From: a virus
Strand: one strand, 5' to 3'
DNA length: 13,845 nucleotides
Virus genome (UHGV): UHGV-0175259
Position numbers and translations under genes: made by a program. The notes beneath the pieces were generated by a model. That model was not told the origin of the DNA. It searched no databases and saw only the letters and a list, made by a program, of their open reading frames with translations. Shown here piece after piece: positions 7,398-9,527 of the stretch (within the stretch, counting starts at the first letter, position 1; each line of letters starts with the position of its first letter).

Positions 7398-8580
7398 TTT
7401 TTATGCGCCGCCCCATAGCATCGAGGCAGAGCAGGCGGTGATTGGTGGATTGCTTCTGGATGATGACAGCAGTGAGCGCGTCCAGAAAGTTCTGGCGATG
7501 CTGAAGCCCGATTCATTTTACAGCCGACCACACAAAATCCTTTTCGAAGAAATAACCAGAATGCACCGGGAGCAAAAGCCAGTAGATGGCCTGACGCTTT
7601 TCGATGAACTGGAGCGTAAATCGTTAACGGCGTCTGTTGGCGGTTTTGCTTATATCGCTGAGATCGCAAAGAACACGCCGAGCGCCGCAAACATCGTTGC
7701 CTATGCAATGCAGGTTCGCGAAACCGCAATGGAACGCTACGCCATCAACCGCATGACTGAAGCGACGGAATTGCTCTATTCCCGCAACGGAATGACTGCA
7801 ACGCAGAAGTACGAAGCTATTCAGGCGATTTTCACGCAACTGACAGACCATGCAAAAACCGGATCGCGTCGAGGCCTTCGCTCATTTGGTGAGGTCATGG
7901 AAGACTGGGTTAGCGACCTTGAGAAGCGATTTGACCCGTCAGGCGAACAACGAGGAATGAGCACAGGGATCCCATCTCTGGACAGGATGCTGTCACCGAA
8001 AGGTCTGGTGAAAGGCTCTCTGTTCGTCATTGGCGCTCGCCCTAAGATGGGGAAAACGACGCTATACAGCCAGATGGCAATCAACTGCGCAGTGCATGAG
8101 AAAAAGCCCGCTCTGATGTTCAGTCTTGAAATGCCAGGCGACCAGATACTGGAAAAGCTGGTAGGACAGAAGTCAGGTGTTAACCCGAATATTTTTTACC
8201 TTCCGGCGACAAATGACGCTGATGACGGCTATCAGGGTGATTACGATGGTGACTTCAATAGGGCGATAGAAACAGCAAATCGCTTGAGTGAAATCGACAT
8301 GCTTTACATCGACGACACGCCGGGATTATCTCTGGCTCAAATCGTCAGCGAAAGCCGTCGAATCAAGCGAGAAAAAGGATGTGTTGGCATGATTCTGGTC
8401 GATTACCTGACACTAATGACCGCTGAGAAGGCCGATCGCAACGACCTTGCTTACGGCATGATCACCAAAGGACTGAAGAACCTTGCCAAAGAGCTTGATT
8501 GCGTTGTTGTGCTTCTGCGGCAAAGAAATCAAAACAGTGAAGCCCCAACTGCGGGAACAGTCAGGGCTTCGGTATCGTAA
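7387..8580 (+). CDS. DnaB-like replicative helicase (P22 gp12-like), probably 3'-truncated and non-functional
   Basis: Start set to ATG 7387 ([25 protein letters not shown]). Walker A GARPKMGKTT and Walker B ILVDYLTLM present, but the protein ends about 45 aa after Walker B (LLRQRNQNSEAPTAG...), without the C-terminal motifs (arginine-finger region) expected in a full-length DnaB-family protein. Confidence 0.6.
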   Translation: MTDNFYAPPHSIEAEQAVIGGLLLDDDSSERVQKVLAMLKPDSFYSRPHKILFEEITRMHREQKPVDGLTLFDELERKSLTASVGGFAYIAEIAKNTPSAANIVAYAMQVRETAMERYAINRMTEATELLYSRNGMTATQKYEAIQAIFTQLTDHAKTGSRRGLRSFGEVMEDWVSDLEKRFDPSGEQRGMSTGIPSLDRMLSPKGLVKGSLFVIGARPKMGKTTLYSQMAINCAVHEKKPALMFSLEMPGDQILEKLVGQKSGVNPNIFYLPATNDADDGYQGDYDGDFNRAIETANRLSEIDMLYIDDTPGLSLAQIVSESRRIKREKGCVGMILVDYLTLMTAEKADRNDLAYGMITKGLKNLAKELDCVVVLLRQRNQNSEAPTAGTVRASVS

Positions 8581-8603
8581 AACCACGCATATGAATTAAC
8601 GAC

Positions 8604-9527
8604 ATGAAAAGTATAGCAACAGCAGTATCTACTATCAATGTACCATTCCACGGCGCAGAGCTTTATGTTGTCAATCACAACGGCGAACCGTATACCCCAA
8701 TGAAACCTATCGTTGAGGGAATGGGGCTAGACTGGAAATCTCAACATAAGAAGATTTCTCAACGCTTCTCGAAGGGTATGGTGGAAATCACCATACCTTC
8801 TGCCGGTGGGGTGCAAGCCATGATTTGTATGGCTTTACGAAAATTGGCAGCTTGGTTGAACAGCATCAGTCCTAACAAAGTCCGCCCTGAAATCCGCGAC
8901 AAGGTAATCCAGTATCAGGAAGAGTGTGACGATGTGCTCTACGAGTACTGGACTAAAGGCCATGTAGTTAACCCACGCAAAGCTAAAAAGGCGTTGCCGG
9001 GTAAAATCACCACTGAACAGCAGGAAGCCATTAAACAACTCGTCATGAGTCGCGGTCAGTCTCTGCCAAAAGAAAAACAGGCGAAGGCGATGATCACCAT
9101 GTGGTCGTCACTGAAATCCCATTTTGGATGTTCGTACAAAGAAATCAGTGATGAGCAGTTTACCGAAGCACTGTCACTTGCTGCTCGCGTTCCGCTTGAA
9201 GGTGAGTTCATTGGCAAACAAGAGAAGAAAACCAACGAGCTTTCTGCAAAAGAAGCAAACAGCCTTGTATGGTTATGGGATTATGCCAACCGCTCACAGG
9301 CGTTATTCCGCGAACTGTATCCGGCATTAAAACAAATTCAATCGAACTATTCCGGCAGATGCTACGACTATGGTCATGAGTTCTCGTATGTTATCGGAAT
9401 GGCGAGAGACGTTTTAATCAATCACACACGAGATGTTGATATCAATGAGCCAGACGGACCAACGAATCTTTCCGCATGGATGAGACTTAAGAATAAAGAA
9501 TTACCTCCTTCAGTACATAACTACTGA
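8604..9527 (+). CDS. ant: Antirepressor, P22 Ant-like
   Basis: 307 aa, similar in size to P22 Ant; sits immediately upstream of a terminator and the tailspike gene, as ant does in the P22 immI region; N-terminal INVPFHGAELYVVNHNGEPYTPMKPIVEGMGLDW looks like an antirepressor N-terminal DNA-binding-type domain. Family assignment from memory only. Confidence 0.55.
   Translation: MKSIATAVSTINVPFHGAELYVVNHNGEPYTPMKPIVEGMGLDWKSQHKKISQRFSKGMVEITIPSAGGVQAMICMALRKLAAWLNSISPNKVRPEIRDKVIQYQEECDDVLYEYWTKGHVVNPRKAKKALPGKITTEQQEAIKQLVMSRGQSLPKEKQAKAMITMWSSLKSHFGCSYKEISDEQFTEALSLAARVPLEGEFIGKQEKKTNELSAKEANSLVWLWDYANRSQALFRELYPALKQIQSNYSGRCYDYGHEFSYVIGMARDVLINHTRDVDINEPDGPTNLSAWMRLKNKELPPSVHNY

Follow-up and report, generated by a model that had tools for sequence, protein, structure and literature searches.

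A Probable Internal Deletion Joins a Truncated Helicase Gene to ant in a P22-like Prophage Remnant

The question addressed here is how a gene for a DnaB-type helicase (P) has come to end early and to lie directly ahead of a gene for a P22-type antirepressor (ant), with the phage late region absent. This arrangement is found in UHGV virus genome UHGV-0175259, a stretch of 13,845 bp (hereafter, the window) that consists of a 13-kb defective P22-like (Lederbergvirus) prophage remnant and its chromosomal flanks, located between sbcB and dacD. The original prediction, which was made from the letters alone, proposed that the genes between the helicase and the antirepressor had been removed and placed the breakpoint at 8515-8603. 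The breakpoint can now be refined to the dinucleotide TG at 8516-8517. We estimate a probability of roughly 0.92 that this dinucleotide marks the novel joint of an illegitimate internal deletion in a P22-like prophage. The locus as a whole is regarded as a case of ordinary prophage decay.

The joint and the truncated helicase

The joint was located by comparing the window, base by base, with HK620 P and with the arc-ant spacers of MBT-5, OkiPb, and MRE162. On the left side, the window is 99.2% identical to the hkaW-O-P DNA of HK620 (megablast) up to position 8517. On the right side, identity to the arc-ant spacer of MBT-5, OkiPb, and MRE162 begins at 8516. The TG at 8516-8517 is common to both parents and constitutes a 2-bp microhomology. 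The window reads GTGCTTC, the shared TG, and then CGGCAAAG; in HK620 P the TG is followed by ACGCAGCTTAAC, and MBT-5 and MRE162 have TTCGCTTGGA before it. The left break falls after codon 377 of 478, inside motif H3 of the helicase (between VVLL and TQLNR), and the last inherited codon is CTG (L377). The right break is 10-12 nucleotides (nt) past the stop codon of arc, which in MRE162 lies 10 nt before the TG. It is 18 nt away from the 3' end of the antisense RNA gene sar, and the deletion spared sar by that distance. The proposed union of a truncated helicase gene with the ant-tailspike end of the immI region, without mnt and arc, is thus confirmed at the level of single nucleotides, with both parents recovered. 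A longer microhomology composed of GCTT..TG patches was considered and rejected, being imperfect and not beyond chance; the 2-bp TG alone is claimed.

The fusion open reading frame (ORF) at 7387-8580 encodes 397 residues from its ATG and retains 377 of the 478 residues of the helicase. The retained codons (7387-8517, plus strand) include the N-terminal domain, the linker, Walker A, Walker B, and the strand before motif H3. This portion is 99.2% identical in nucleotide sequence to P of HK620, and the homology stops at 8517 (L377). The N-terminal DnaB domain (PF00772) is present at residues 8-112 with a score of 108 bits. Walker A is found as GARPKMGKT at residues 216-224 and Walker B as ILVDY with D339; the two align with the P-loop and D343 of Escherichia coli DnaB (PDB 6bbm). 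The Pfam DnaB_C match covers profile positions 1-184 of 255, and that of the 478-residue HK620 P covers positions 1-244.

The remainder of the C-terminal domain is missing. Motif H3 is broken between L377 and the T of TQLNR, and the window reads RQRNQ in its place, from unrelated spacer DNA. HK620 P residues 378-478, which hold H4 and the arginine finger, are absent, and a tblastn search of the window with this segment (E ≤ 10) gave no match. Alignment with E. coli DnaB (PDB 6bbm) places SQLNR (H3), the H4 segment RPVNSDLRESGSIEQDAD, and the arginine of GKQRNG within the lost part. The original prediction of a helicase with Walker A and Walker B but without the C-terminal motifs is therefore supported by both the DnaB_C coverage and this alignment. 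Its statement that the protein stops about 45 residues after Walker B was a fair approximation, since the homology ends 38 residues and the ORF ends 58 residues past D339. The motif names used here are those of the family, and the arginine finger is taken to be R442 within the E. coli GKQRNG sequence. Without H3, H4, and the arginine finger, the fragment would fall outside the functional DnaB helicases. The truncated protein is predicted to be dead and unable to support replication from the origin (ori) within O, which is intact.

The last 20 codons of the fusion ORF (8518-8580, plus strand) are a read-through tail with the sequence RQRNQNSEAPTAGTVRASVS, followed by a stop codon at 8578-8580. 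They derive from the former arc-ant spacer, and both MRE162 and MBT-5 have DNA identical to that of the tail in the spacer that follows arc. The beginning of the tail, RQRNQNSE (residues 378-385, 8518-8541), resembles SQLNRSLE, and HMMER extends the DnaB alignment to residue 385. At the level of the DNA, this likeness to H3 is seen to be a coincidence, which over-extends the homology by 8 residues past the breakpoint.

These results bear on the proposal that the joint is a natural mosaic boundary, or that the helicase is naturally short, with ant having arrived by modular exchange between functional phages. The "ant morons" of P22-like phages are indeed highly mosaic, the functional phage CUS-3 carries ant without arc (PMC2629481), and homology to CUS-3 starts at 8538 of the window, in a known boundary region. 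However, the CUS-3 boundary lies 21 nt to the right of the joint at 8517, and the tail of the ORF is a read-through of noncoding spacer that is identical in phages with a complete immI. The locus is flanked by the host genes sbcB and dacD and has no virion or lysis genes, and none of 50,697 phage records spans the joint. In addition, the full-length gene of a sister lineage (lineage D, described below) is 100% identical to the window up to the break. A natural mosaic joint or a naturally short helicase is accordingly considered extremely improbable.

The joint is also absent from 5,426 complete E. coli genomes, and the P22-like and lambdoid modules that are repeated within genomes are prone to misassembly. 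Both points would fit a chimeric contig in which two phage-derived repeats had been joined by the assembler. Against this, 18 independent contigs encode the exact 397-residue fusion protein; they come from an NCBI isolate, from ENA metagenome assemblies made with MEGAHIT and with SPAdes, and from unitig-based Logan assemblies. Each of the nine loci that were fetched has the identical junction and is at least 99.9% identical to the window, with identical flanks and consistent host genes on both sides. An assembly artefact is rejected on these grounds, and the chance that one explains the joint is negligible.

The retained part of immI

The distance between the stop codon of the fusion ORF and the ATG of ant at 8604 is exactly 23 nt, as had been predicted. 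What the first reading overlooked is the intact sar gene that occupies this gap and the tail of the ORF. The sar gene (8536-8602, minus strand) is complete; it matches positions 1-68 of the 68 positions of Rfam model RF00262 with a score of 73.2 bits (gathering score 43), and its RNA folds into two hairpins with an energy of -28.2 kcal/mol (z = -5.1). Its terminator, a hairpin of 14 bp followed by a run of T, is located at 8539-8570 (minus strand). The sequence KPQLREQSG (8541-8567), which had been suggested to be the last trace of the helicase C-terminus, is made up of codons inside this hairpin. The same stretch is identical in CUS-3, MBT-5, OkiPb, and MRE162 and is conserved in epsilon34, and in all of them it stands directly upstream of ant. 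That suggestion is therefore abandoned. The sar promoter, Psar (TTGATA-17-TATACT with an upstream TG; 8610-8638, minus strand), lies inside the 5' end of ant at the same position as the annotated Psar of epsilon34. The sar gene overlaps the ribosome-binding site of ant, and pairing of sar RNA with that site has a documented role in P22 (PMC2629481, its refs 62-64).

The ant gene (8604-9527, plus strand) is intact and encodes 307 residues with both P22 antirepressor domains (P22_AR_N, 152.6 bits; P22_AR_C, 103.6 bits). It is 96.5% identical in nucleotide sequence to ant of CUS-3. An intrinsic terminator follows at 9545-9572 (plus strand) and matches the terminator annotated after ant in epsilon34. 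The next gene (9627-11606, plus strand) encodes a tailspike of 659 residues, of which residues 1-113 match the P22 head-binding domain (Pfam Head_binding, 222 bits). The predicted succession of an Ant-like gene and a tailspike gene is thus upheld by the domains of both proteins.

The proposed absence of mnt and arc also stands. A tblastn search of the window with the Arc and Mnt proteins of MRE162 (E ≤ 10) gave no match, and a blastn-short comparison with the 1.7-kb block that carries these genes in MRE162 gave chance matches only. To the left of 8516 there is helicase coding DNA, and mnt, arc, and the Pant/Pmnt operator region are missing. We interpret the right side of the joint as a partial immI region in which ant, sar, and Psar are present and arc, mnt, and Pant are absent. 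As a separate observation, a P63C-domain fragment within the MRE162 block (L006, 8428-8880) has weak similarity to the middle of Ant (window 8892-9020; tblastn E = 5e-4), which hints at a domain shared between P63C proteins and P22 antirepressors.

The Shine-Dalgarno sequence of ant (8591-8594, plus strand) is AGGA in the relatives of the window and ATGA here, owing to a change from G to T at 8592. All nine junction-bearing loci with sequence at this site have the T, among them L012, in which the ancestral G at 4500 is kept; MRE162, MBT-5, OkiPb, and CUS-3 have G. The same change replaces C by A in loop 1 of sar. It is one of three substitutions private to the lineage of the window and one of the six that separate the window from MRE162 over 11.9 kb. 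In a post hoc test, one of six substitutions would fall within these 4 nt with a probability of about 0.002; counting all recognisable control sites of ant raises this value to about 0.01. Either simple decay or a knock-down that compensated for the loss of Arc, Mnt, and Pant could account for the change. Another substitution, G to A at position 4500 between the OL operators and near pL, arose within the lineage of the window, as L012, MRE162, and Sf6 have G.

In the repressed state, ant would be silent. The gene has no promoter of its own and is without Arc and Mnt, and it would be transcribed only by read-through from pR, under repression by a cI protein of the 434/Sf6 immunity type. The cI gene (4975-5607, minus strand) is intact; it encodes 210 residues with a helix-turn-helix and a Peptidase_S24 domain and is 99.8% identical in nucleotide sequence to cI of Sf101. 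The promoter pR (TTGACA-17-GAAAAT; 5655-5683, plus strand) coincides with the PR annotation of Sf6 mapped from locus L017. No other promoter-like site was found on the plus strand between pR and ant, which leaves pR as the sole candidate upstream of ant, and no terminator-like site was found on that strand between 5848 and 9544. After cleavage of cI in the SOS response, transcripts from pR could cross cro, cII, O, and the truncated P into ant. Because N was removed by an earlier deletion (see below), this read-through would proceed unassisted by antitermination. The sar RNA would still pair with the ribosome-binding site of ant, and the tailspike and acyltransferase genes would be left as an orphan right arm.

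An adaptive explanation for the retention of the deletion can be built on this arrangement. Placed under the control of cI and the SOS response through pR, and tempered by sar and a weakened ribosome-binding site, ant would supply antirepressor, possibly together with free tailspike, only upon DNA damage, and the antirepressor could act on other lambdoid or P22-like prophages or on incoming phages, by inducing them or by interfering with them. The intact ant with its two domains, the intact sar and Psar, the position of pR as the only promoter-like site upstream with no plus-strand terminator-like site on the way, and the autocleavage domain of cI all agree with this explanation. So does the substitution at 8592, which is present in all junction-bearing loci covering the site and absent from every arc-bearing relative. 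The sister lineages nevertheless speak against it, since ant is truncated in two of them (C and D) and arc and mnt are kept in a third (B), so that neither preservation nor rewiring of ant is a consistent outcome. Without N, only weak read-through beyond tR1 would be expected, and a knock-down of the Shine-Dalgarno sequence is equally expected from the neutral decay of a silent gene. The lineage of the window is essentially clonal (at least 99.9% identity) and gives no power to detect purifying selection. Adaptive rewiring is for these reasons judged to be distinctly unlikely, and the internal deletion is preferred as an event of decay.

Sister lineages and the missing interval

An earlier deletion on the left arm provided the means of finding relatives of the remnant. 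At its joint (4389-4390, with a TT microhomology), a truncated ssb gene that has lost its N-terminus is joined to nutL of the 434/Sf6-type immunity region. The match to intact ssb extends to 4390, and homology to Sf6 and Sf101 starts at 4389, within the annotated nutL. Lost in this first deletion were N, erf, kil, cIII, and further early-left genes. Of the 5,426 complete genomes, that of MRE162 is the only one to share the first joint. Sister lineages were found by lookup of the exact truncated SSB fragment that this deletion created, and 24 contigs were read. Four architectures of the remnant (A-D) were recognised at this one sbcB-dacD site, and each is marked by an independent deletion of the late region.

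Lineage A is composed of the window and of loci L007-L015, L020, L024, L026, and L027, which are colinear with it; the deletion runs from P codon 377 to 10 nt past arc with the microhomology TG. In lineage B (MRE162, that is L006, together with L023 and L028), window positions 1-6570 and 7359-7722 are followed by an insert of 1.7 kb and then by 8516 onward. The insert holds the P63C fragment, a hypothetical gene, mnt, and arc. The late-region deletion of this lineage extends from P codon 112 into the P63C gene, and a separate deletion within O (6571-7358) has the microhomology TA. Lineage B provides the right parent of the joint in the window, as it retains mnt, arc, and the 10 nt that precede window position 8516. 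In lineage C (L022 and L025), positions 1-5899 are joined to 8693 onward, from cro codon 63 to ant codon 30, with the microhomology TAC. In lineage D (L021 and L029), positions 1-4390 are followed by an inverted block and then by 9807 onward. Here a deletion from ninA codon 4 to ant codon 116, again with the microhomology TAC, was followed by an inversion with flanking deletions. The inverted block contains ant 8949-8971, 12 nt of ninA, a complete P of 478 codons, and the 3' end of O back to 7196. The 21-nt filler in this lineage had no match in phage records and is a piece of ant.

The P gene of lineage D is 100% identical to window 7196-8517, and the 317 nt that follow are 98% identical to the 3' end of HK620 P. 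The gene in the window is therefore a truncation of the full-length gene of this very prophage. It was also considered that the window might simply have the structure of MRE162, with which its flanks are 100% identical; this was ruled out by the different internal structure of MRE162. Given the deletions that each has suffered, the window cannot have arisen from the MRE162 structure, nor the MRE162 structure from the window. The mapped joints of the late-region deletions have microhomologies of 2-3 bp, and the substitutions form a star-like pattern in which one to three changes are private to each lineage. Every lineage keeps the recombination and anti-RecBCD genes of the left arm and the acyltransferase arm. 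The tailspike gene is whole in three lineages and has lost its first 60 codons in the fourth. A literature search for a description of the MRE162 prophage found nothing relevant.

A further observation concerns the ssb-side breakpoint (window 4390/4391; ...CTCTCCAGTTT), which is nucleotide-identical in all four lineages. In lineages A-C it is joined to nutL, and in lineage D (L021, reverse-complemented, 10383/10384) it is joined to the inverted block that starts with ant 8971-8949. Either the old joint, which lies at the foot of the nutL hairpin, was used a second time in lineage D, or this position is a hotspot of rearrangement.

The extent of what is missing from the window can be judged from canonical relatives. 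The interval from the break to the end of arc is 26.5 kb in MBT-5; in LR-60, which has no arc or ant, the interval to the tailspike gene is about 22 kb. In these two, the interval contains nin, Q, the lysis genes, the genes for terminase, portal, scaffold, coat, head completion, needle, and ejection proteins, and immI-region morons. Missing at the joint in the window are the C-terminal part of the helicase, nin, Q, the lysis and virion genes, the immI-region morons, mnt, the Pant/Pmnt region, and arc. The claim that the late region was removed at this joint thus stands with regard to the absence of the nin, Q, lysis, head, and tail genes; its loss in a single event is not provable. What the sister lineages prove to have been present in the common ancestor is limited to the 3' end of the helicase gene, 12 nt or more of ninA, and some 1.7 kb ahead of ant, namely the P63C fragment, the hypothetical gene, mnt, and arc. 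The interval from P to ant is crossed by all four independent deletions, an argument that something costly to the ancestor was still in place there.

A precedent for such a cost is known from lambda. Prophages of lambda that are N-defective, non-excisable, and derepressible kill their host by replication in situ, and the survivors are mutants in O, P, and ori (PMC6022878). The ancestor of the present remnants, already without N, would likewise have been derepressible and unable to develop. Replication functions have been lost in all four lineages: P in lineage A, O and P in lineage B, cII, O, P, and ori in lineage C, and the N-terminus of O, ori, and cI-cro in lineage D. From these two facts, we infer selection against replication and late functions, which probably favoured these deletions; the pattern fits. 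A bolder version would make the locus a natural replicate of prophage domestication, in which an N-less, replication-competent prophage was resolved four times and the knock-down of ant was compensatory, with selection against replicative killing and antirepressor toxicity at work in place of neutral decay. This version is offered as a tentative and rather doubtful possibility.

Several points weigh against these interpretations. The 2-bp microhomology is within chance, as about 16% of random joints would have at least 2 bp by a geometric estimate, and the molecular pathway can therefore be described no more closely than as illegitimate recombination. None of the 24 contigs read combines the first deletion with an intact late region. 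Since no such intermediate was found, the ancestor might already have lacked part of the interval, and we can only infer that the whole of it was lost in one event. The argument for selection is post hoc and is drawn from four lineages. That all four left ends fall between cro and P has a probability of about 0.05 under a rough model of uniform endpoints from cro to Q.

The remnant and known systems

The integrase gene lies at one end of the remnant, and host genes are found on both sides, with sbcB next to int on the left and the acyltransferase gene followed by dacD on the right. From the left, the 3' end of sbcB is followed by the gene for a tyrosine integrase (347-1525) and by the leftward early arm, which consists of an HTH/xis-like gene, genes for LprI-like, DUF2737, and anti-RecBCD Abc2 proteins, a gene for a 3'-5' exonuclease, and the truncated ssb. 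The middle part is composed of the 434/Sf6-type immunity region (cI, pR, cro, and cII) and the replication genes O and P, the latter starting at 7387. The right arm contains ant, the tailspike gene, and, on the minus strand, the gene for an AT3-SGNH acyltransferase, after which the sequence continues toward dacD. No nin, Q, lysis, head, or tail genes are found in the gene list of the locus. The remnant belongs to the well-known class of cryptic lambdoid and P22-like prophages. Because the helicase is truncated and N, Q, and the late genes are missing, it is predicted to be unable to make phage or to replicate upon induction. The closest complete genome is that of E. coli MRE162 (NZ_CP119404), in which a remnant likewise lies between sbcB and dacD, and the host appears from this relationship to be an E. 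coli lineage closely related to that strain.

The replication initiator gene O (6498-7397, plus strand) is intact, encodes 299 residues, and is 99.2% identical to O of HK620. The iterons of ori lie within it at 6885-6985, as mapped from the rep_origin annotation of HK620 (repeat family D2). In L011, 66 bp (22 codons) are missing between two iteron-containing ori repeats of 35 nt, which leaves an O of 277 rather than 299 residues; this is a repeat-mediated in-frame deletion in the origin (window 6885-6985).

The receptor-binding part of the tailspike gene (window 9993-11196) is 88.8% identical in nucleotide sequence to the tail fibre gene of the lytic T7-like Kayfunavirus CLB_P1, which looks as though virulent podoviruses and temperate P22-like ones had exchanged receptor modules. 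A prophage arm in O104:H4 strains matches the entire ant-tailspike-acyltransferase arm at 96.9% identity. The acyltransferase gene (11677-13587, minus strand), which forms the right end of the prophage, encodes 636 residues with Pfam Acyl_transf_3 and SGNH domains and is annotated in MRE162; it is a probable O-antigen-modifying moron. In the NCBI isolate GCA_015476745.1 (L007 and L020), a deletion of 1 nt near the 3' end of this gene (window about 11797-11802) results in ORFs of 613 and 30 residues, and this may be either decay of a cargo gene or a homopolymer sequencing error. A tandem array of an 8-mer (AAACTATT) occupies 13778-13845 and reaches the end of the window. Alignments to other loci end at different units of the array (13805-13845), which suggests variation in copy number between the right end of the prophage and dacD.

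Taken alone, the junction is of little weight, being one more deletion scar in a cryptic prophage. Annotators should be warned that the 397-residue "DnaB-like helicase" is in all likelihood a dead fusion product, and that a sar gene without annotation overlaps its tail. The value of the locus lies in the clean reconstruction, with both parents of the joint preserved in sister lineages and four decay states that are one to three substitutions apart. Such a series allows tests of what drives early decay, namely selection against in situ replication and late genes or mutational bias, and it also bears on whether the loss of the immI repressors selects for secondary silencing of ant.

Compared with the helicase P of HK620 (NP_112058.1, 478 residues), the product of the window has the same first 377 codons (99.2% nucleotide identity), with the N-terminal domain, the linker, and the Walker A and B motifs. 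In contrast to HK620 P and E. coli DnaB, it lacks 101 residues at the C-terminal end, which comprise H3, the H4 loop, the arginine-finger region, and the C-terminal tail, and has 20 spacer-encoded residues instead. With the immI regions of P22 and epsilon34, the window shares the ant domains, sar, Psar within ant, the terminator after ant, and a head-binding tailspike, in the same order and with the same spacing (PMC2629481). It differs from them in the absence of mnt, Pant/Pmnt, and arc, in an ant gene without a promoter, and in a Shine-Dalgarno sequence of ATGA rather than AGGA.

The nearest relative is the remnant of MRE162, which has the same site, integrase, first deletion, and ant-tailspike-acyltransferase arm, with 6 substitutions in 11.9 kb. 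Unlike the window, MRE162 keeps mnt and arc and has lost O from codon 25 to its end and P from codon 112 into the P63C gene. A complete relative at the same sbcB-dacD site is the 39-kb P22-like prophage of E. coli LR-60 (L019; NZ_AP027570, 1861719-1900219), with a closely related integrase and a helicase of 478 residues. It differs in having another immunity region and no arc or ant; its mnt is followed directly by a different tailspike gene.

The RK- survivors of N-defective lambda are likewise N-less and derepressible, and the replication functions lost in them (O, P, and ori) are those lost in all four natural lineages. Those survivors are laboratory selections made at 42 °C with cI857, whereas selection on the present remnant is deduced from the pattern of loss. 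The helicase of the window is moreover a homologue of DnaB and not of lambda P, and the deletions in the remnant also remove late genes. The cryptic prophages Rac, DLP12, Qin, and e14 of E. coli K-12 have similarly been reduced to a repressor, a few early genes, and cargo, fixed in the chromosome. In comparison with these, the remnant described here is P22-like and recent, with the parents of its joint recoverable at 98-100% identity, and it exists in four alternative states of decay.

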